Program-made: the position numbers and the translations under genes | Shown: one piece after another, positions 1-23,250 of the stretch | Position numbering within the stretch: the stretch's first letter is position 1 | Layout of the letters: each line of letters begins with the position of its first letter | Source: Planctomycetales bacterium | GTDB lineage: Bacteria > 4484-113 | DNA length: 24,856 nucleotides | NCBI GenBank assembly: GCA_037445915.1 | Contig: JBBIJQ010000027.1 | Location: forward strand, 1-24,856 | Direction of reading: 5' to 3' | The notes under the pieces: generated by a model | The model's database searches: none | What the model was told of the DNA's origin: nothing | Seen by the model: the letters and a program-made list of their open reading frames with translations, nothing else

Positions 1-951
1 TTTGCTCTGCTTCTCCTCCGCGATGCGGCTGGCGTTGCAGGCATCATCGGCGCAGCTTCCAATAACGCCACCGGCATTTCCGGCGTCGCAGGCGGCGGGA
101 AGGGCGGCCAAGGCGGAGTTAGGCTGATGATACTGCGCGTTGGCACGAACGGGAGCATCACCGTTGATGCTGAAGTCGCCGCGCTGGATTACGCTGTGCA
201 AAACGGCGCAAAGGTAATAAATATGAGCTTTGGCGGAGTGACCGGCGGCCCGCCTGAGGCAAACGCAATTACGCGCGCATGGAACGGCGGGGCAATAATT
301 CTCGCCGCTGCCGGCAATTACCCCGCCGGCAACCCAGGCGGCATTGACCTGCCGGCAGGCTTCCCCGAAGTCATCGCAGTCGGCGCGACAACCATATTCG
401 CCAGCCGCTCCGTCTTCCCGACTACTGCCATCGTCCCTGAGACCCTCGCTGATTACAGCAAGAAAGGCCCGCAGATGGGAGTAACCGCCCCAGGCACGCA
501 CATCATCACGCTCTTCGGGACTGAAGGCTACACTATTGACCCCGACACCCAGTTCCGCGGCACCAGCGCCGCCACTCCCATCGTAAGCGGATTTGCAGCC
601 CTTTTGGCGAGCTACTTCACGGCCGACAACAATGCTTCGCTGCGCAGCAGGATTGAAGCGTCAACCATTGATTTAGGCCCAGCCGGCTTTGATGAGAGCT
701 ACGGGCACGGCCGCATTGACATGGCCAAGGCATTCCGCAGCGCCCCGCCCCCGCCCCCGCCTGCGCTTGAAGGCGACGCCAACGCCGATGGCGTGGTGAA
801 CAATGCGGACGTGAATGAGCTCTCTAGCCGCTACGGCAAGCGCACAGGCGACTCCGGCTTTACGGCTGCCGCCGATACGAATACCGACGGTGTTATTGAC
901 GAGCTGGATATCTTCGCCATCGGCCTGAACTTCGGGAAGTCGGCTACTTAA
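1..951 (+). CDS. Subtilisin-family (S8) serine peptidase with Pro-rich linker and C-terminal dockerin-like domain, 5'-truncated at the window edge
   Basis: Frame is open from base 1 (GVAGIIGAASNNATGISGVA); VINMSFG, AAAGN (oxyanion Asn), VIAVGAT, GTSAATP (catalytic Ser), YGHGRID; then PPPPPPP and twin Ca-loop repeats GDANADGVVNNAD / ADTNTDGVIDELD. Confidence 0.9.
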   Translation, partial: FALLLLRDAAGVAGIIGAASNNATGISGVAGGGKGGQGGVRLMILRVGTNGSITVDAEVAALDYAVQNGAKVINMSFGGVTGGPPEANAITRAWNGGAIILAAAGNYPAGNPGGIDLPAGFPEVIAVGATTIFASRSVFPTTAIVPETLADYSKKGPQMGVTAPGTHIITLFGTEGYTIDPDTQFRGTSAATPIVSGFAALLASYFTADNNASLRSRIEASTIDLGPAGFDESYGHGRIDMAKAFRSAPPPPPPALEGDANADGVVNNADVNELSSRYGKRTGDSGFTAAADTNTDGVIDELDIFAIGLNFGKSAT

Positions 952-6020: not shown

Positions 6021-7079
6021 CTAGCTGAATTGGCGGAGGAAGCGGAGGTCGTTTTCAAAGAACATGCGGGCGTCGGGGACTTGATAGAGAACCTGCGCCA
6101 TGCGCTCAACGCCGAAGCCGAAAGCCCATCCGCTGTAAACATCGGGGTCTATGCCGGAATCGCGCAGCACTTGCGGGTGCACCATGCCACAGCCCATGAC
6201 TTCTATCCATCCCGATTGCTTGCACACGCGGCAGCCAACGCCTGCGCAAAACGGGCAGGTCACCGCCATCTCTGCGCCAGGCTCCACGAAGGGGAAATAA
6301 TCAGGGCGCAGGCGCACTTTCGTTTCCGGGCCAAAGAACTGGCGAGCGTATTCGGAGAGTATCCAGCGCATATTCGCCATGCTTATGCCCTTGCCGATTT
6401 GCAGCCCTTCAATTTGGTGGAACGCAGGCGTATGCGTCGCATCGGGACGGTCACGGCGGAAAGTGCGCCCCGGGGAAATCATCTGCACGATGACGTCGCC
6501 CGGCTCTTCCTCGCGCTCCTTGAGCTGCTTCATGATGCGCTCCATCACGCGCACCTGCACCGGCGACGTGTGCGTGCGCAGGATGAGCCCCGGCGCGAGG
6601 AAGTATGTGTCAACGTCGTCGCGCGCGGGATGGTCGGCGGGGATATTCAACCTATCAAAGTTGTATTCCTCAAGCTCCATCTCTGGGCCTGCGTAAACGT
6701 CAAAGCCCATTGACGTGAAGATGCCGATGATACGGCGCATCGCGGACTGCACCGGATGCAGGCGGCCCACCTGCACGCGCGTGCCGGGAAGGCTGTCGTC
6801 AAAGAACGATTGCGCGGATTTGGCTTTGGATGCGAGCGCGGATTCAAGCTCAGCAAACGCCTGCTCAAGCTCCTGCTTGAGGGCGTTCACGCTCTGGCCG
6901 TAGTCTTTGCGGTCGTTTGCGGGGACGTCTTTTATCGCGGCGAGCGCGTCTTTGATGAAACCCTTGCCGCCAACAGAACGCGACTTAAGCTGCGCGAGTT
7001 CGTCGGGCGTAGATGAAGCTTTCACGGCGGCAACCGTCTCCGCGGTGAGGGAGGCCAGTTCTTCAAGCGAGCGCGGCAA
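6021..7079 (-). CDS. pheS: Phenylalanine--tRNA ligase alpha subunit
   Basis: GRLHP, NFDRLNIPADHPAR, LRTHTSPVQ, FHQIEG, RPDYFPFVEP, WIEVMGCGMVHP, FGFGVER, ENDLRFLRQF; TTG start. Confidence 0.98.
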   Translation of the reverse strand: MPRSLEELASLTAETVAAVKASSTPDELAQLKSRSVGGKGFIKDALAAIKDVPANDRKDYGQSVNALKQELEQAFAELESALASKAKSAQSFFDDSLPGTRVQVGRLHPVQSAMRRIIGIFTSMGFDVYAGPEMELEEYNFDRLNIPADHPARDDVDTYFLAPGLILRTHTSPVQVRVMERIMKQLKEREEEPGDVIVQMISPGRTFRRDRPDATHTPAFHQIEGLQIGKGISMANMRWILSEYARQFFGPETKVRLRPDYFPFVEPGAEMAVTCPFCAGVGCRVCKQSGWIEVMGCGMVHPQVLRDSGIDPDVYSGWAFGFGVERMAQVLYQVPDARMFFENDLRFLRQFS

Positions 7080-7443: not shown

Positions 7444-7649
7444 TAACCCTTACCCCCCAGAAGCTCAGTGTATCTCTTGCGGTCGGGCGCGGCGACTTCA
7501 ACCGAAACGGCGAGGCTGCGCTTCTGGCGCGAGGATTTCTTGGACAGCATGTGTCGTGAGCAGGCGAGCTTCCTAAGAAGCTTCCCGCTCTTTGTTCGGC
7601 GAATCCGCTTCGCGGTCGCTTGATGTGTTTTCACTTTTTGTTTTGGCAT
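7443..7649 (-). CDS. rpmI: 50S ribosomal protein L35
   Basis: [38 protein letters not shown] upstream; TAATG coupling to rplT. Confidence 0.96.
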
Positions 7650-8217
7650 CAGTAGCGGCTCCTTGCTTAGGACCCTTTCGTTTAGAAGCGGTTATTATAA
7701 CAAAAAGCCGGTTGCCTACCAAGCCCTTGCTACGGGAATCTACAATTCCCTCTTCGGCGAGCATTGCGACGATGCGGCTAAGCAGCCCCTGCGCCAGCGT
7801 ATCGTGGTACGCTTTCTCGCGGCCGCGCAGCAGCAAGTTGAAGCGCACCTTAAACCCGCGTTCAAGGAACTTCTTGGCCTGGTTGACTTTCGTTTCCAGG
7901 TCGTGGTCGCCGATCTTCATAGAAAGCCCAAGCTCTTTCAGCTCGCCACCGCCGCTTTTCGCGACCGTACGCTTTTTCTTTTCCTGGTATTTGAGCTTGC
8001 CGTAATCCACCATCTTGCAGACTGGCGGGTTCTCGTTCGGGCTAACTTCTACGAGGTCAAGCGCCTTTTCCCACGTGCGGTTCAGCGCCTCTTCAATGGG
8101 AACGACGCCAAGGCTTGCGCCGGTTTCATCAATAAGAAGGACCTCGGGTATCCGTATCTGACGATTGACCCTCGGCCCCCTTTGCCCTTTCCCTTTTACA
8201 GATGGTTTTTGCCTCAA
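7573..8217 (-). CDS. infC: Translation initiation factor IF-3 (proposed TTG start at 8217 rather than 8289)
   Basis: RVNRQIRIPEVLLID, LDLVEVSP..PPVCKMVDYGKLKY, IGDHDLETK, FLERGFKV, RGRE. Start choice is inferred from the promoter at 8225-8253 and typical IF3 N-terminal length. Confidence 0.95.
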   Translation of the reverse strand: MRQKPSVKGKGQRGPRVNRQIRIPEVLLIDETGASLGVVPIEEALNRTWEKALDLVEVSPNENPPVCKMVDYGKLKYQEKKKRTVAKSGGGELKELGLSMKIGDHDLETKVNQAKKFLERGFKVRFNLLLRGREKAYHDTLAQGLLSRIVAMLAEEGIVDSRSKGLVGNRLFVIITASKRKGPKQGAATDAKTKSENTSSDREADSPNKEREAS

Positions 8218-8224
8218 CTCTGAA

Positions 8225-8253
8225 GTTATATCAGACGCGCTTGATTGCGTCAA
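8225..8253 (-). promoter_or_regulatory. sigma70-like promoter of the infC-rpmI-rplT-pheS operon
   Basis: TTGACG, 17 nt ending in TGa, TATAAC, then 7 nt to an in-frame TTG. Confidence 0.65.
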
Positions 8254-8342
8254 ATCCGCACTACTAGCAGGCCGCTTCATCGCTCGCAAACAGCTGCAAA
8301 TTAGCTAGACTTAAGCACAAGTGATTTAGCGCGCCATAGTTA

Positions 8343-8372
8343 ATGACAAAGCTAAGGATGTTCTGATAAAAT
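8343..8372 (+). promoter_or_regulatory. sigma70-like promoter of the rpsA operon
   Basis: ATGACA, 18 nt ending in TGa, TAAAAT. Confidence 0.55.
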
Positions 8373-8430
8373 GCAAAGTTCACAGCCGCGTTGTGGCTGG
8401 CTCGGACATATTATTTAGAGGCTGTTGTTA

Positions 8431-9825
8431 ATGGACGAATTCAAGGAACTCCTGGAAGACGATCTGGGAACCCAAGCCCTTCAGCAGGGCTCCGTTGTAA
8501 CCGGTAAAATCGTGCAAATTGGCGAGTCGGGCGTCTTTGTTGACATCGGCGCCAAGAGCGAAGGCGTTTTGCCGCTTGACCAGATACTCCCCCGCGACCT
8601 TCCCCGCCTTCAAGTCGGCGAAGACATCAAGGTCAAAGTCGTCAAGCGCGTTGAGGGAGAATACATCCTCAGCAAGCGCGCAGTAGATTACGAAGAGGCC
8701 TGGAACCGCCTGCTTGACGCGCAGCGTGACAACGCCGCGATTGAAATCACGATTGAATCGCCCGCCAAGAACGGCTACATCGCGCGCGCATACGGCGTCG
8801 CCGAGGGCTTCGTCCACCGCTCCAACTTTGACGATACGCCGGAAATCGGCAGCACTTATAAGGCGTTCATACTTGACTTGAACAAGCGCGACCGCAAGCT
8901 AGTATTCTCGCGCCGCGCTATCCTTAAAGAAGAGCAGGAAAACCGCCTTGAAGAGGAGTTCGGCCATTACCAGCCCGGTATGGTCGTTGACGGCACCGTT
9001 GACAGCCTTACCGCTTACGGCGCGTTTATCCGCATTTCGCCAAGCATAACCGGCTTGCTGCACATCTCCGAGATGGCGTGGCACCAGGTTAAGCGCCCCT
9101 CCGACGTCATCAAGAAGGGCGATAAGGTCAAGGTAAAGATTCTTGAGCTTGACCCCGACCGCAAAAAGATATCTCTGTCGCTCAAGGCCGCCACGCCCGA
9201 CCCACTGGCCTCGCTGCTTTCCGGCGAGGAGCTTGAGGGCAAAGTGGAATCCGTCGCCGACTTCGGCGTGTTCGTGCGCCTGACGAACCATGTCACTGGC
9301 CTAGTTCATACCAGCGAGCTTTCGCACAAGCGCTTCGGCCACCCTTCCGAGCTTCACAAGCAGGGCGATCGCGTGAAGGTCAAGGTCATTAACGTTGACA
9401 CCGACAGCCGCCGCGTGGGCTTGTCCATCAAGGCTTGCGAGCAGGACCCGTGGAACGAAGTGCAGCTCAAATACAGCCTTGGCCAGGTCGTTGAGGGCCA
9501 AGTCACCCAGCTTCTTGACAACGGCATGGTCGTCAAGCTTGACGATTCCTTTGAGGGCTTCGTGCCCATCGGCGAAATCAGCCTTGACCGGATTGACCAC
9601 CCCAAGCGCAAGCACCAAGTTGGCGAGACCGTTGGCGTCAAGGTCATGAATATAGACACCAATCGCCGCCGCATCCGCCTGTCGATCAAGGCGATGCTGG
9701 TTGATGGCGACGCTGTTGGGATTCCTTCCGAGCCCACAGGCTCCGCTGACATCTCACCGACCGCGGGGAAGGTAACCCTTGGCGACCTCATCGACACGAG
9801 CAAGCTTATTATTGAGGAAGAGTGA
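8431..9825 (+). CDS. rpsA: 30S ribosomal protein S1 (five S1 domains)
   Basis: VFVDIGAKSEG; repeated G.V....FG.FV.L....GL.H.SE..RI.LS.K units; C-terminal TLGDLI; AGAGG SD 9 nt before ATG 8431. Confidence 0.93.
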   Translation: MDEFKELLEDDLGTQALQQGSVVTGKIVQIGESGVFVDIGAKSEGVLPLDQILPRDLPRLQVGEDIKVKVVKRVEGEYILSKRAVDYEEAWNRLLDAQRDNAAIEITIESPAKNGYIARAYGVAEGFVHRSNFDDTPEIGSTYKAFILDLNKRDRKLVFSRRAILKEEQENRLEEEFGHYQPGMVVDGTVDSLTAYGAFIRISPSITGLLHISEMAWHQVKRPSDVIKKGDKVKVKILELDPDRKKISLSLKAATPDPLASLLSGEELEGKVESVADFGVFVRLTNHVTGLVHTSELSHKRFGHPSELHKQGDRVKVKVINVDTDSRRVGLSIKACEQDPWNEVQLKYSLGQVVEGQVTQLLDNGMVVKLDDSFEGFVPIGEISLDRIDHPKRKHQVGETVGVKVMNIDTNRRRIRLSIKAMLVDGDAVGIPSEPTGSADISPTAGKVTLGDLIDTSKLIIEEE

Positions 9826-16202: not shown

Positions 16203-19040
16203 ATGAAAGTAATCCTAAAAGGATTCTTAATCTTTCTGGCTTTTATTTTCTTGTTATCTGCAGCATTCTCGTGTGGCGGCCGCAGGCAACTGTCTGCCCT
16301 GTCAGAATTGAAAGCTGGCATCTCGCCTGTCTTTCCTAATGCAGGGGAGCCGCGCGAAACCACGCTTGATGCCACTTTGGCTGAGCTTGAAGCCCTTTCG
16401 CCTCCTATTGGCGTAAGCGCGCCTGTCTTCAAGGAAATAAAGTCAGCGCTCGCAGATGCACTGCGCTTTAGAAGCGTTTCCAAATTCATCTCCAAGCCTC
16501 CGGCCGGTGAACAGAACCGCGTTGATGACCTTACGCCGATTGAGGATGGCGCCGGGGGCTATATCCTCATGTGGCATTACCGCAATCTTGGAGATTACAA
16601 CCAAGACGGTTCCGTTGGCGTTGCCGATATAACTCCCCTAGCCATTTTCTACAACTCCGCCGCGCCTGATCCCAATTCACTCCAAGGAGTTATAGACGGA
16701 GACAATAGCCGCGATATCAATGTAGCCGACGTCACGCCAATAGCCATGAGCTTCTCCACGGATTGTGCTGGCTATCTAGTTCAGGCGTCACCTAACATGG
16801 ATGGCCCTTGGACTTCTCTTGGAGATTTTGTCCCACTCACATCGGGAAGCGGAGAGGGTAGGCGCGTATTCCAGTTCTCCCTACCCCTCACCGCCAGCGG
16901 GTATGCCCGCGTAGTGCCGGTGGACGGGTCAAGCCAGCCGGGAATCGAGAGCAATGTAGTTGCAATTACCGCTGTAAGCGAGTTTCCTGTGATAATTGCA
17001 GTTACTCCGCAAGAGGGAGTCACAGGCGAAGATGTCACTTTCAACGTGGCCGCCACCGGCACCCCGCCTTTAGCCTATGATTGGGACTTTGGCGGCGGCG
17101 CTACGCCGGATACCAGTACAGATATCAGCCCTGCCGTTACGCTGGGCAGCGCAGGAAGCTACTTGGCCTCAGTTCAAGTAAGCAATGGCCAAGGCAGCGT
17201 AACACAGGACTTCATCTTGACCGTGACTAGCAGCGAAATGCCGCCCTTGATAGCCAGTGTTTCACCCAAGGAAGGGATAACCGGCACTTTCCTTTCCTTC
17301 GCCGCTAATCTCTCAGGTACTTCGCCAATGAGATACAGCTGGGATTTCGGCGGCGGAGCCACGCCTAACAGCAGCACCTCTGCAACCCCCATCGCCACAT
17401 TGGGCGCAGCAGGAAACTATCTTGCCTCGGTGCAAGTGAGCAACGCTTATGGCAGTGAAACTTATGAATTTGACCTCACTGTAACCGCTAACGGAAGGCC
17501 GCCGGCTATATCCGAGGTGACTCCTGTGCAGGGGGCATCCGGAACACGCGCTACTTTTGCAGCTAGAGGCAATGGAACTCCGCCTTGGAGCTATAGCTGG
17601 AATTTTGGCGGCGGCGCTACGCCAAATACCAGCAAATCAGCAAGCCCGACAGCAACACTGGGCGCGGCGGGAAGCTATCTCGCTTCACTAGTTGTTACCA
17701 ACGCTTACGGCAGCGACACTTTTGAATTCGCTCTGACTGTGACTGGTAATGGCAACCCGCCAGTGATAGGAAGTGTGTCGCCACAAGAAGGAATCACTGG
17801 CACTAATGTAACCTTCACCTCTGATGTCACCGGAGCTGCGCCATTTAGCTACAGTTGGAACTTTGGAGGCGGCGCTACGCCAAACACAAGCTCGGCAGCA
17901 AGCCCGACAGTTACGCTAGGCGCGCCGGGAAGCTATTCAGCATCGCTCACTGTGACCAACGCTGATGGCAGTGACACCTATGGCTTTCCTGTCACTGTGA
18001 CTATCAGCGGCAACCCGCCAGTGATAGGAAGTGTGTCACCAACAGAAGGAATCACAGCCACTAATGCAACCTTCACTGCTCTCGTCGCAGGGACGTCACC
18101 ATTTACCTACAGTTGGAACTTTGGTGGCGGCGCTACGCCAAATACAAGCGATGCAGCAAGCCCAACAGTTACGCTAGGCGCGCCGGGAAGCTACCTTGCC
18201 TCACTAGTAGTTACCAATGGTTACGGCAATGATACTTACGGCTTTCTTATCACCGTGACTAGCGCAGGCGTGCCGCCATTGATAGACGGGTTATCGCCTG
18301 AAGAGGGAATCACTGGGACTCTAACTACTTTCGCTGCCAGCATTTCAGGCACTCCACCATATAGCTACAGTTGGAACTTTGGCGGCGGCGCTACACCAAA
18401 TACAAGCGTTGCAGCAAGCCCGACAGTCACGATGGGCGCAGTCGGCAGCTATACCGCGTCGCTGTCCGTCACAAGCGCTTATGGCAGCGATACTTTTGAA
18501 TTTGAGCTAGTTGTGACGCAGAACGGTAACCCGCCAGTGATAGGCGGAGTGTCGCCGCCTGAAGGGATCGCCGACAGCTTTGTTACCTTTAGGGCTATGC
18601 TTTCTGGCTCTTCGCCATTTGGCTACAGCTGGAACTTTGGCGGCGGCGCTACGCCAAATACCAGCGCGGATGCAAGCCCGACAGTCACGCTAGGCGCGCC
18701 GGGAAATTACTCTGCATCATTAACTGTAACCAACGCCTTTGGCAGCGACACTTATAACTTCACTCTGACTGCAACTGAAAGCGGCAGGCCGCCGATAGTC
18801 AGCGGAGTAATACCTGCTCAAGGCGTAAGTGGAACTCGGACGACATTTTCCGCTAATGTAACCGGAACCTCTCCCCTGAGCTACATCTGGAACTTTGGAA
18901 ACGGCGCTGTTCCAAATACAAGCAAGAAGTCAAATCCAAAGGTGAAGCTGAAATCACCTAAGAGCTATTCCGCTTTTGTTACCGTGACCAATACTTTTGG
19001 CTCCGATACATTTTACTTCACGCTCTTGGTTGTCCCTTAA
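16203..19040 (+). CDS. Putative surface lipoprotein with dockerin-like module and eight PKD-like repeats
   Basis: Lipoprotein-type signal ending AFS-C24; GDYNQDGSVGVADITPLA / DGDNSRDINVADVTPIA; 8 repeats with YSWNFGGGATPNTS....PTVTLG..G.Y.ASL.VTN..G. Confidence 0.85.
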   Translation: MKVILKGFLIFLAFIFLLSAAFSCGGRRQLSALSELKAGISPVFPNAGEPRETTLDATLAELEALSPPIGVSAPVFKEIKSALADALRFRSVSKFISKPPAGEQNRVDDLTPIEDGAGGYILMWHYRNLGDYNQDGSVGVADITPLAIFYNSAAPDPNSLQGVIDGDNSRDINVADVTPIAMSFSTDCAGYLVQASPNMDGPWTSLGDFVPLTSGSGEGRRVFQFSLPLTASGYARVVPVDGSSQPGIESNVVAITAVSEFPVIIAVTPQEGVTGEDVTFNVAATGTPPLAYDWDFGGGATPDTSTDISPAVTLGSAGSYLASVQVSNGQGSVTQDFILTVTSSEMPPLIASVSPKEGITGTFLSFAANLSGTSPMRYSWDFGGGATPNSSTSATPIATLGAAGNYLASVQVSNAYGSETYEFDLTVTANGRPPAISEVTPVQGASGTRATFAARGNGTPPWSYSWNFGGGATPNTSKSASPTATLGAAGSYLASLVVTNAYGSDTFEFALTVTGNGNPPVIGSVSPQEGITGTNVTFTSDVTGAAPFSYSWNFGGGATPNTSSAASPTVTLGAPGSYSASLTVTNADGSDTYGFPVTVTISGNPPVIGSVSPTEGITATNATFTALVAGTSPFTYSWNFGGGATPNTSDAASPTVTLGAPGSYLASLVVTNGYGNDTYGFLITVTSAGVPPLIDGLSPEEGITGTLTTFAASISGTPPYSYSWNFGGGATPNTSVAASPTVTMGAVGSYTASLSVTSAYGSDTFEFELVVTQNGNPPVIGGVSPPEGIADSFVTFRAMLSGSSPFGYSWNFGGGATPNTSADASPTVTLGAPGNYSASLTVTNAFGSDTYNFTLTATESGRPPIVSGVIPAQGVSGTRTTFSANVTGTSPLSYIWNFGNGAVPNTSKKSNPKVKLKSPKSYSAFVTVTNTFGSDTFYFTLLVVP
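16983..19037 (+). repeat. Eight tandem coding repeats of about 258 nt (86 aa)
   Basis: caacccgccagtgataggaagtgtgtc occurs at 17753 and 18011 (258 nt apart); core tggaactttggcggcggcgctacgccaaa recurs with small changes. Confidence 0.92.
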
Positions 19041-20383: not shown

Positions 20384-21634
20384 ATGGCTGAAGAGCTAAA
20401 TCCGCGGTTAGTAGCCCAACAGCAGCTAGACTTGGCTGCAAAGCTGCTTAACCTTGACCAAGGGATGCACGCGTGGTTGCGCGAGCCTGCGGTCGTGATG
20501 AAAGTATGGGTGCCCACTAAGATGGATGACGGCACCATCAAGGTTTTCCCAGCCTGGCGTTCACAGCACAACGCGATGCGCGGCCCGACGAAGGGCGGCG
20601 TGCGATTCCACCCCGATGTTTGCGAAGACGAGGTAATCGCGCTTTCAATGTGGATGACCTGGAAGTGTGCGCTAGTCAACGTCCCCTTCGGCGGCGCGAA
20701 AGGCGGTATTTGCTGCAACCCCGTTGAAATGAGTATCGGCGAGCTTGAGCGCCTCACCCGCCGGTTCACTTTCATGATCAGCCCCATCATCGGACCAGAA
20801 AAAGACATACCGGCGCCTGATGTTTACACCAACCCGCAGACTATGGCCTGGATGATGGACACTTACAGCGTCTTGAAGGGTTACACCGTCCCCGGCGTCG
20901 TCACAGGCAAGCCGATTGACATCGGAGGATCTGAAGGGCGCGTTGAGGCAACCGGTCGTGGCGCAGCGCTCACTGTGCGTGAAGCGCTGAAAACGCTGGG
21001 TATGGACCCAACAAAGTCAACCGCTGCAGTGCAGGGCTTCGGGAATGTGGGATCCAACGCCGCAAAACTCATGCACGACATGGGCATCAAAGTCACTGTC
21101 GTCAGCGACGTAAGCGGGGGGATTAAGAACCTTGACGGGCTAGATATACCAGCGCTCATCAAGCATGTGCACGACACCGGTTTCGTCAAGAACTTCCCTG
21201 GCACAAAGCCGGTCAGCAACGATGAATTGCTGGGCAGCGACGTTGATATCCTCCTCCCTGCAGCACTGGAGAACCAGATTACCAGCAGAAACGCCGCCAA
21301 CGTCAAGGCGAAAATCATCAGTGAAGGCGCAAACGGCCCAACTTCTCCGGAAGCTGACAGGATTCTCTTTGAGAAGGGAGTCTTTATGGTGCCTGACATT
21401 CTAGCGAACGCCGGCGGCGTCACAGTTTCATACTTTGAGTGGGTTCAGGACCTTTACAACTTCCGCTGGGACGAGGAGAGGGTCAACTCAGAGTTGGAGA
21501 AAGTCATCGTAAACGCGTTTGAAGACGTGATTAAAACGGCTAGCGAAAAGAAGGTCCACAACAGGACCGCTGCATACCTTCTCGCAGTCGCACGCGTCGC
21601 GCGCGCAGGAACCATGCGCGGCCTGTTCCCGTAA
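20384..21634 (+). CDS. Glutamate dehydrogenase, Glu/Leu/Phe/Val dehydrogenase family (Bacillus GudB/RocG- or Thermotoga-like type)
   Basis: GPTKGGVRFHP, MTWKCA, PFGGAKGG, DIPAPD, VVTGKP..GGSEGR.EATG, QGFGNVG, EGANGP, PDILANAGGVTVSYFEWVQ; GGAGG SD. Confidence 0.95.
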   Translation: MAEELNPRLVAQQQLDLAAKLLNLDQGMHAWLREPAVVMKVWVPTKMDDGTIKVFPAWRSQHNAMRGPTKGGVRFHPDVCEDEVIALSMWMTWKCALVNVPFGGAKGGICCNPVEMSIGELERLTRRFTFMISPIIGPEKDIPAPDVYTNPQTMAWMMDTYSVLKGYTVPGVVTGKPIDIGGSEGRVEATGRGAALTVREALKTLGMDPTKSTAAVQGFGNVGSNAAKLMHDMGIKVTVVSDVSGGIKNLDGLDIPALIKHVHDTGFVKNFPGTKPVSNDELLGSDVDILLPAALENQITSRNAANVKAKIISEGANGPTSPEADRILFEKGVFMVPDILANAGGVTVSYFEWVQDLYNFRWDEERVNSELEKVIVNAFEDVIKTASEKKVHNRTAAYLLAVARVARAGTMRGLFP

Positions 21635-21740: not shown

Positions 21741-23087
21741 TTAGACTACGCCCTGGTCAAGCATCGATTTGGCGACCTTAATAAAGCCGGCGATGTTCGC
21801 GCCATTGACGTAGTTGCCTGGAGTCCCGTATTCAGCAGCGGTTTCTACGCAGGTCTTGTGGATTGAAATCATAATGTTCTGGAGCTTCTTGTCCACTTCC
21901 TCGCGCGACCAGGAAGTATGCCCTGCGTTCTGCGCCATTTCAAGGCCGCTGGTAGAGACCCCGCCCGCATTGGCAGCCTTGCCCGGCCCGTAGAGAATCT
22001 TGCTCTGGATGAAGTGCTCAACCCCTTCGGGAACAGTTGGCATGTTCGCGCCTTCGCTGACGACATACACGCCGTTCTTGACTAGCGCCTTCGCGTCATC
22101 CGCGGAGACTTCGTTTTGGGTAGCGCTGGGGAATGCGCACTGCGCGCCAGTAACATTCCACACGCCAACGCCTTCATGGAATTCAACGCCCTTGAATTTC
22201 GTCGCGTAATCCCTGATGCGGCCGCGCTTGACGTTCTTGAGATCCATCACGTAATCCAGCTTGCCCGCGTCAATGCCGTCGCGGTCAACGATGAAGCCGT
22301 CGGAGTCGGACAATGTGATGCACTTGCCTCCAAGATCGTTCACCTTCTGCACAGTGAACTGTGCGACGTTGCCGGAGCCAGACACGAGGCAAACCTTATC
22401 TTTGATGCTCTCGCCACGGGTCTTCAGCATTTCATCCGCGAAGTACACTGCGCCATAGCCAGTCGCCTCCGGGCGGATGAGGCTGCCGCCCCAGTTGATG
22501 CCCTTTCCCGTCAGCACACCCTCAAAACGGTTGACGATGCGCTTGTACTGGCCAAACATGTAGCCGATTTCACGCCCGCCTACGCCGATGTCGCCGGCGG
22601 GGACGTCGGTTCGCTCGCCGATGTGGCGGTAGAGTTCGGTCATCAGGCTCTGGCAAAAGCGCATAACTTCGCCGTTAGACTTACCCTTGGGATCAAAGTC
22701 GGAGCCGCCCTTGCCACCGCCAATTGGAATGGTTGTGAGCGCGTTCTTGAAAACTTGCTCAAATCCCAGGAACTTGAGGATGCCGAGATTAACTGAGGGA
22801 TGGAAGCGCATTCCGCCCTTGTAGGGGCCGATGGCGCTGTTGAACTCAACACGAAAGCCTTTGTTGACCTGCGGCTGGCCTTTGTCGTCAACCCATGGAA
22901 TCCGGAACAAAATGACCCGCTCGGGTTCCACGATGCGGTCAATGACCTTCTCTTCCTTGTAGACGGGATGACGGTCAAGCACCAGGGCTAAGGATTCAAC
23001 AACTTCCCTAACAGCCTGGTGAAATTCTCTCTCTCCTGGATTTTTAGCTATAACGCCTTCCATGAAGGCATCAACCCACTGTGACAT
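21741..23087 (-). CDS. gdhA: Glutamate dehydrogenase, E. coli GdhA-like (usually NADP-specific) type
   Basis: EFHQAV.EV, EPERVI.FR.PW.DD, SAIGPYKGG.RFHPSVNL, GGGKGGSDFDPKGKS, DVPAGDIGVGGREIG, GGSLIRPEATGYG, SGSGNVAQ, KAANAGGV; GGAGG SD before ATG 23087. Confidence 0.96.
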   Translation of the reverse strand: MSQWVDAFMEGVIAKNPGEREFHQAVREVVESLALVLDRHPVYKEEKVIDRIVEPERVILFRIPWVDDKGQPQVNKGFRVEFNSAIGPYKGGMRFHPSVNLGILKFLGFEQVFKNALTTIPIGGGKGGSDFDPKGKSNGEVMRFCQSLMTELYRHIGERTDVPAGDIGVGGREIGYMFGQYKRIVNRFEGVLTGKGINWGGSLIRPEATGYGAVYFADEMLKTRGESIKDKVCLVSGSGNVAQFTVQKVNDLGGKCITLSDSDGFIVDRDGIDAGKLDYVMDLKNVKRGRIRDYATKFKGVEFHEGVGVWNVTGAQCAFPSATQNEVSADDAKALVKNGVYVVSEGANMPTVPEGVEHFIQSKILYGPGKAANAGGVSTSGLEMAQNAGHTSWSREEVDKKLQNIMISIHKTCVETAAEYGTPGNYVNGANIAGFIKVAKSMLDQGVV

Positions 23088-23250
23088 CAGCGTACCCTCC
23101 AATCGTTAGTGTGCTTGATTAGGATATGAAAGCCCTGTCGAAGTGCGGCGGGGCAATTTAGTCTAGCACACACTATTCCAAAACGCTATTACCTTTCCCT
23201 GATAACAGCGCATTACACAAGAAAAATGAACTGGATTGGCGCGGGAATGG

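Follow-up and report, generated by a model that had tools for sequence, protein, structure and literature searches.

Autoregulation of infC, the gene for initiation factor IF3, is taught as an AUU/AUC rule. In E. coli, infC is autoregulated via an SD-led AUU, AUC or AUA start codon (Butler et al. 1987 and Sacerdot et al. 1996, cited in PMC5499595 and PMC2830850), and a promoter for rpmI also lies inside infC in that species (PMC10931766). PMC5499595 describes UUG on SD-led mRNA as canonical to IF3 and as barely affected by added IF3.

IF3 is also an antagonist of leaderless initiation. PMC11775629 reports that in a reconstituted E. coli system an excess of IF3 is inhibitory to leaderless mRNAs and spares SD-led ones, and that leaderless GUG, UUG and CUG are very poor starts, which its authors ascribe to IF3 proofreading. 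In vivo, PMC9031893 reports that raised infC expression inhibits model leaderless mRNAs, that low IF3 stimulates them, and that some leaderless initiation depends on IF3 when tRNA levels are normal; it describes the IF3 effect on leaderless mRNA as global, as are all the mechanisms proposed there, and states the regulation of single leaderless mRNAs as an open question. Leaderless UUG was ineffective in M. smegmatis reporters (PMC4633059), and in Caulobacter each leader base roughly halves leaderless output, with non-AUG codons lowering it too (bioRxiv 2020.05.06.081141). In D. deserti, GUG is found mostly at 0 nt, AUG tolerates short leaders and the three TTG cases reported all have leaders of 1-5 nt (PMC4007540). 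Here we analyze an infC gene for which an earlier note had proposed a leaderless, UUG-initiated mRNA as an alternative circuit of IF3 autoregulation.

The infC operon and its promoter

The window is the whole stretch of DNA that was analyzed, 24,856 nt of contig JBBIJQ010000027.1 (assembly GCA_037445915.1). On its minus strand, infC (7573..8217; IF3 of 214 aa, with a match to TIGR00168) heads the series infC-rpmI-rplT-pheS, in which rpmI (L35; 7443..7649) begins 77 nt before infC ends and has its own SD, AAGGAG, at 7664-7659, and rplT (L20; 7090..7443) was assigned based on a profile match. Upstream of infC lies the divergent gene rpsA (plus strand; promoter at 8343..8372, ATG at 8431), and there is no same-strand gene that could read through. 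A second promoter, TTGGTA-17-TG-TATAAT (7694..7722, minus), is predicted inside infC for rpmI-rplT-pheS; its TG-TATAAT is identical, 44-48 nt before rpmI, in all 10 of the family f1 sequences examined, and no such TATAAT site was found before rpmI in seven f2 sequences. There were no Rfam matches in the window. Elsewhere in it, two glutamate dehydrogenase genes converge (20384-21634, plus; 21741-23102, minus); they belong to different subfamilies, and one best matches an archaeal-type model. ORFs of 945 aa (16203-19040, plus) and 416 aa (1532-2782, minus) gave no convincing NCBIfam family.

The predicted promoter of infC, of the sigma-70 type, consists of a -35 element TTGACG (8253-8248, minus), a spacer of 17 nt ending in TGa, and the extended -10 TG-a-TATAAC (8225..8233, hexamer 8230-8225, minus), which is separated by the 7 nt TTCAGAG from the in-frame TTG at 8217-8215 (minus). 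The earlier note had described this arrangement, including the C at the conserved last position of the -10, and each element was found as it had stated. It also holds that no SD is present: we found no SD word before the infC start, the 16S gene of the assembly being cut at a contig end and having no readable anti-SD. The pattern TTGAC-13..15-TGnTATAA occurs once in the genome, at infC, versus 0.24 occurrences expected by composition; this single occurrence alone is not beyond chance, and the case for the promoter therefore rests on conservation.

To that end the infC loci of six genomes of family f1 were compared with those of seven metagenome contigs, 13 loci in all. Two of them are exact duplicates, and L003 and L031 agree at every readable position; the 10 distinct copies represent about five lineages and are not independent. 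Both the TG-extended -10 and the -35, TTGAC(G/T), are kept in all 10, whereas the sequence of the spacer diverges (in one genome copy the -35 is masked by Ns and is visible in its metagenome twin). The spacer is 17-18 nt long, the -10 reads TG(A/C)TATAA(C/G/A), and the distance from promoter to start is 7, 8 or 9 nt in 10/10 copies, so that the alignment of relatives' upstream regions proposed in the earlier note did reveal a retained -10/NTG spacing. Within the minus-strand interval 8150-8470, no extended -10 other than the infC element scores >3 bits.

The last base of the -10 is never T in the clade copies, being C, G or A, and the genome's model of leaderless promoters has T there in 97%; a strict promoter scanner missed the infC site because it requires that T. 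The -35 at infC is near-consensus, a feature shared by only 3 of 226 other leaderless-like promoters, and it could compensate for the T-less -10. CarD rescues such promoters in some bacteria. No stand-alone CarD was found among the 24 genomes of the phylum; 23 of them have one match each, all in frames of >=700 aa that are Mfd-like by length. A -10 register two bases downstream (TAACTT) was rejected, with a score of -7 on the genome model and with its last T absent in L033, L034, L005, L035 and L036.

A purine stands directly 5' of the start codon in 10/10 clade copies. Since the sharp peak of GTG starts in this genome (see below) implies initiation at the seventh base after the -10, transcription of infC is predicted to start at G8218 (minus), and the mRNA probably carries about one leader base. 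The leaderless architecture and the UUG codon proposed in the earlier note are thus backed by conservation, but its zero-length leader is probably 1 nt too short. No mRNA structure is conserved at the infC 5' end, where the MFE ranges from -2.7 to -12.5 kcal/mol versus a class mean of -7.9.

Start codon and N-terminal segment of IF3

Translation from TTG 8217, the sole in-frame near-cognate codon from the -10 to N18, gives an IF3 with the N-terminal sequence MRQKPSVKGKGQRGPRVN. Its N18 aligns with N16 of a solved IF3 of 180 aa (8jsg), which bears out the normal N-terminal length claimed in the earlier note. The start codon is TTG in seven of the distinct clade copies, GTG in three, all of these in genus g5 or near it, and ATG in none; no other Leu or Val codon ever occupies the position. 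The distance from the -10 to the start varies by single bases, and N18 always follows the start by 51 or 60 nt.

The 17-codon basic segment from the start codon onward, MRQKPSVKGKGQRGPRV (8167..8217, minus), has an in-frame coding signature. The ratio of synonymous to non-synonymous codon differences over 21 pairs, a count that includes the identical L003/L031 rows, was 116:109 in frame versus 17:208 and 23:197 in the shifted frames; for g5 alone it was 20:10 versus 2:23 and 6:22. The 17-20 codons after the start therefore evolve as protein, and a self-trained coding model also picks 8217 as the infC start. Earlier starts are excluded by in-frame stops a short way upstream in four copies. In L034 the stop abuts the TTG; in L005 and L036 it precedes the GTG by two codons; and in G001 (L002), which belongs to the same genus as the source genome, it precedes the TTG by four codons. 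The alternatives named in the earlier note, ATG 8280, TTG 8289 and an ATA that it placed at 8230 and that is actually at 8229, lie inside or upstream of the promoter, in a frame that is broken by stops in relatives including G001. Internal CTG and ATC starts behind purine-rich words in genus g2 were likewise dismissed, being absent from the other copies. Taken together, the comparison leads us to state with high confidence that infC starts at UUG 8217 in a leaderless-type architecture.

The leaderless-like gene class of the genome

In order to place infC among other genes, a simple self-trained gene finder (1625 predicted genes) was combined with a model of the extended -10 whose training sites lay 6 nt upstream of ATG or GTG. 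This training favours distance 6, but the peak at that distance was already present with plain motifs before the model was trained. At scores >=6, the numbers of in-frame starts at distances of 6/7/8/9 nt were 52/39/35/29 for ATG, 58/15/8/5 for GTG and 1/6/4/9 for TTG, with an out-of-frame TTG control of 4/3/3/6 from 2.3 times more triplets. ATG and GTG are thus strongly enriched 6-9 nt behind a -10, and the TTG excess is slight. D. deserti displays the same asymmetry among start codons (PMC4007540). At scores >=7, 240 of the 1625 genes are leaderless-like (147 ATG, 79 GTG and 14 TTG), which puts the leaderless-like ATG/GTG genes, as judged by motif, at about 226. Ten of the 13 TTG cases besides infC have a better downstream start, and for the seven with a homologue in the compared DNA no matching TTG start was seen by eye. 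One case, on C21, had no homologue to compare and may be a second real one; infC is the only TTG case seen to be conserved.

A frame-blind count of TGnTAnAAT-N6-RTG versus -YTG gave 43 versus 4 in the source genome, and 343 versus 66, 188 versus 62, 218 versus 41 and 4 versus 1 in families f1, f2, f3 and f4, respectively; by this motif the leaderless-type promoter class is phylum-wide. Strict-pattern promoters of this type number about 12-26 per Mb in f1, 17-25 in f3, 3-9 in f2 and 2 in f4, and leaderless use therefore varies several-fold within a small phylum.

Orthologues that stay leaderless-like have swapped ATG and GTG in 13 of 49 pairs with G005 and 19 of 50 with G002, in a comparison that covered 697 kb of G005 (about 2.3 Mb) and 865 kb of G002 (about 2.2 Mb). 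A further 23 (G005) and 20 (G002) orthologues have no qualifying promoter, and the G005 infC is among them, with a TATAAA that scores 5.0. It is suggestive that start codons appear to drift within the leaderless class, with ATG the commonest, yet infC is without ATG in about five lineages, an argument that is not a formal test and that draws on related, non-independent copies.

None of 14 other translation genes checked, several of them operon-internal, has a start 6-9 nt behind a -10. Apparent TTG starts were noted for infA (C17, about 30467, plus), rpsF (C20, about 13198, plus) and pheS (window 7077-7079, minus); a candidate promoter of rpsF includes a -35, and its -10 ends in G. The ATG of rpsL (C17, about 14866, plus) is 18 nt behind a strong -10, with no SD word.

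History of the infC 5' end

Of the 24 genomes in the four families of the phylum, 22 gave an infC match, one of which is a 3' fragment. Among the 14 genomes of f2-f4 with a readable 5' end, infC has an SD with ATA or ATC in 12 and an SD with ATG in two. The latter form genus g8 (L013 = G013, L017 = G015), in which infC has its own basic N-terminal extension; here the phylum has lost the ATA start a second time, independently.

A tree of IF3+L35+L20 (28 rows with one distant outgroup; three distant rows in which the anchor motif could not be located were left out) unites the leaderless copies with a support of 94, with G004 as their sister at 100. As G004 and all of f2-f4 are leadered, leaderless infC appears to have been derived once, in a clade of at least three genera. 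In G004 (L006) a 14-codon ATG-led uORF starts 11 nt behind a TATAAT, about 60 nt upstream of the conserved Asn, and its TGA overlaps an in-frame CTG of infC. The infC of G004 may start at an ATT whose SD is only 1 nt away or at the CTG by reinitiation, or an assembly frameshift may be present.

The f2 infC promoter reads TTGAC-17-TGnTATATT, the f2-f4 copies have TTGAC(A/T), and wherever a promoter was found in the phylum its -10 is 47-69 nt from the conserved Asn. The infC promoter is the same element throughout the phylum, so that the former 5' UTR was probably turned into N-terminal codons with the promoter left in place. The non-T -10 is confined to the leaderless clade.

Beyond the phylum, 148 further infC loci were collected, biased to Proteobacteria-like and Gemmatimonadota hits; after five were skipped and 11 duplicates removed, the remaining 132 comprised 120 with SD+ATH, three with SD+ACG, five with SD+ATG/GTG and four without an SD call. 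No -10 directly before a TTG was seen by eye among the 12 that are not SD+ATH. In three metagenome loci (L066, L086 and L088) the SD is placed for an ACG start. An unrelated infC, L089, has an ATG 6 nt behind TAGAAC with no well-placed SD, and is possibly an independent leaderless case.

The IF3 protein

The infC product matches the IF3 profile TIGR00168 over its full length (141 bits against a cut-off of 60; E 3e-41) and IF3 entries of the PDB (E 3e-29), and no other IF3 gene was found in the assembly, which is 90% complete. In the start-codon-reading RFRGR motif the RGR core is intact (LLRGRE), with the equivalents of R131 and R133 (E. coli numbering) kept; that of R66 is Lys in the source genome. 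The equivalent of Arg25, which PMC9723500 calls invariant, is Leu in the source genome (G000), G001 and most of f2, and Arg in g2 and g5. Given this Leu, proofreading by the protein may differ from that of E. coli.

The last 77 nt of infC (7573-7649, minus) lie within rpmI, read in a different frame, and give IF3 a C-terminal tail. The overlap measures 71-143 nt in 11 measurable leaderless-clade sequences, 4 nt in G004 and 23-119 nt in f3, and is absent in f2 and f4; the corresponding rpmI frame of f2 is untranslated but likewise stays open, for 23-200 nt or more. Terminal extensions of mitochondrial IF3 are described as easing leaderless translation (PMC11775629). The tail observed here may be a by-product rather than a mitochondrial-like adaptation.

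Discussion

We propose that the near-leaderless UUG start acts as an IF3 sensor that replaces the SD-led AUA/AUC start found in most of the phylum, a reading of the aligned sequences that we rate at an even chance. In its favour, the start that was replaced is of the kind known to be IF3-sensitive, and the new one is poor by the standards of this genome, where ATG and GTG are strongly enriched behind the -10 and TTG barely is. RNA polymerase would initiate on the purine before the start codon, to give a pppG-UUG message on which, without an SD anchor, the initiation complex would depend on weak UUG-anticodon pairing. Free IF3 splits 70S ribosomes and destabilizes weak complexes, so that the infC message would be inhibited before the AUG and GUG leaderless messages of the genome: within the class, pppG-UUG, or a GUG 1-3 nt in, would be weakest and would give way first to rising IF3. 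High IF3 would then lead to less IF3 being made, and low IF3 to more. The internal rpmI-rplT promoter, which is family-wide, likely freed the infC 5' end for IF3 alone. The clade would in this way have rewired its IF3 homeostasis, with the message letting IF3 read out its own anti-leaderless activity, a wider claim that we regard as equally balanced between right and wrong.

Several observations shape or weigh against this proposal. Because leaderless UUG is ineffective in M. smegmatis, the infC message has to be translated with an efficiency unusual for its class. Because IF3 treats UUG as canonical on SD-led mRNA, any IF3 sensing must come from the leaderless context; the antagonism of non-AUG initiation invoked in the earlier note accordingly fails for UUG as such (PMC5499595). 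The weak UUG that the note saw as part of the design is present in seven of the 10 copies and is not essential, since genus g5 mostly has GUG at a longer distance, and the use of GUG in three copies counts against feedback. So do family f3 and Deinococcus, which are equally leaderless-rich, yet keep ATA/ATC. In addition, the need for IF3 in leaderless initiation could blunt or reverse the feedback at low IF3.

A simpler explanation, which we consider a serious possibility but somewhat doubtful, is that the near-leaderless UUG is a fixed dampener that keeps IF3 low, codon-level autoregulation having been lost in the clade; infC would then respond to IF3 no more than other leaderless mRNAs do. 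The canonical standing of UUG on SD-led mRNA (PMC5499595) and the cost of extra leader bases and non-AUG codons in Caulobacter (bioRxiv 2020.05.06.081141) both suit this explanation, as do the apparent TTG starts of infA, rpsF and pheS and the loss of the conserved T from the -10 in the same clade, which looks like general down-tuning. Genus g8, with its SD and ATG, indicates that start-codon feedback can be lost and is thus dispensable. However, damping could be reached via promoter changes alone, and the promoter does vary, yet a non-AUG start is held in 10/10 copies; moreover, with rpmI-rplT under their own promoter there is less need to set IF3 below the co-transcribed ribosomal proteins.

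It is improbable, in our view, that the weak leaderless start senses the supply of fMet-tRNA or IF2, ppGpp or the free 70S pool instead of IF3, with IF3 synthesis rising as 70S ribosomes accumulate. Leaderless translation is reported to increase with initiator tRNA, IF2 and (p)ppGpp (PMC9031893), and non-AUG mRNAs to respond to nutritional state (PMC5499595), but nothing in the sequence points to any of these inputs, and the free 70S pool is itself set by IF3, so that this explanation partly merges into the proposed IF3 feedback. Least likely, and very improbable, is that the site is not a working promoter and start, infC being translated from a longer or processed transcript or from ATG 8280, TTG 8289, ATA 8229 or a core Ile codon: the T-less -10, the failure to find a stand-alone CarD in 24 genomes and a source-genome frame that stays open for 29 codons further upstream would allow it, but that frame is broken in same-genus G001 and others, rpsA is divergent with no other minus-strand -10 in the interval, the near-consensus -35 could compensate, the candidate rpsF promoter likewise ends in a non-T, and with a downstream start the conserved R-x-N would be lost and the coding signature would have no explanation.

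Comparison with known systems

Searches of the main texts in a full-text collection with few subscription papers found neither a leaderless infC nor a use of the anti-leaderless effect of IF3 as feedback on infC itself. With the classical E. coli system the locus shares the gene, the operon infC-rpmI-rplT-pheS, a conserved non-AUG start and a promoter for rpmI inside infC. It differs in that the start is TTG or GTG rather than AUU, AUC or AUA, with no in-frame ATH from the -10 to N18, and in that the classical SD-led 5' UTR is replaced by an arrangement with no leader and no SD. Sensing here would rest on the leaderless context, whereas in the classical case it rests on a third-position mismatch. 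As read from its 5' end, this infC resembles one under start-codon control, yet lacks two of the features by which the classical form is defined. The L20-responsive infC leader of B. subtilis (PMC10931766) has in common control at the 5' end of the operon, but this transcription attenuation needs a long structured leader, for which there is no room here, in keeping with the lack of Rfam matches.

The locus shares with bacterial leaderless and short-leader mRNAs a start codon directly behind an extended -10, here at 7-9 nt and with no SD. Such mRNAs usually start with AUG or GUG, and infC here has TTG. Leaderless-rich Deinococcus keeps ATA at infC by alignment (PMC2830850). Unlike the cases in D. 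deserti, mycobacteria and Caulobacter, the rare UUG is conserved here on an essential initiation factor that antagonizes leaderless initiation, and it is this antagonism, as described for E. coli IF3, that supplies the activity needed by the proposed feedback. If true, the proposal would provide gene-specific feedback on a leaderless mRNA, and would protect the genes that are apparently translated without a leader, about one in seven in these genomes. Even without feedback, an essential protein is apparently made from a near-leaderless UUG that, according to reporters in model organisms, should barely work, and within the phylum the change from SD-led to leaderless initiation can be traced, the promoter having stayed in place. 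The infC 5' end described here would thus form a natural, conserved link between infC autoregulation and the regulation of leaderless mRNAs.
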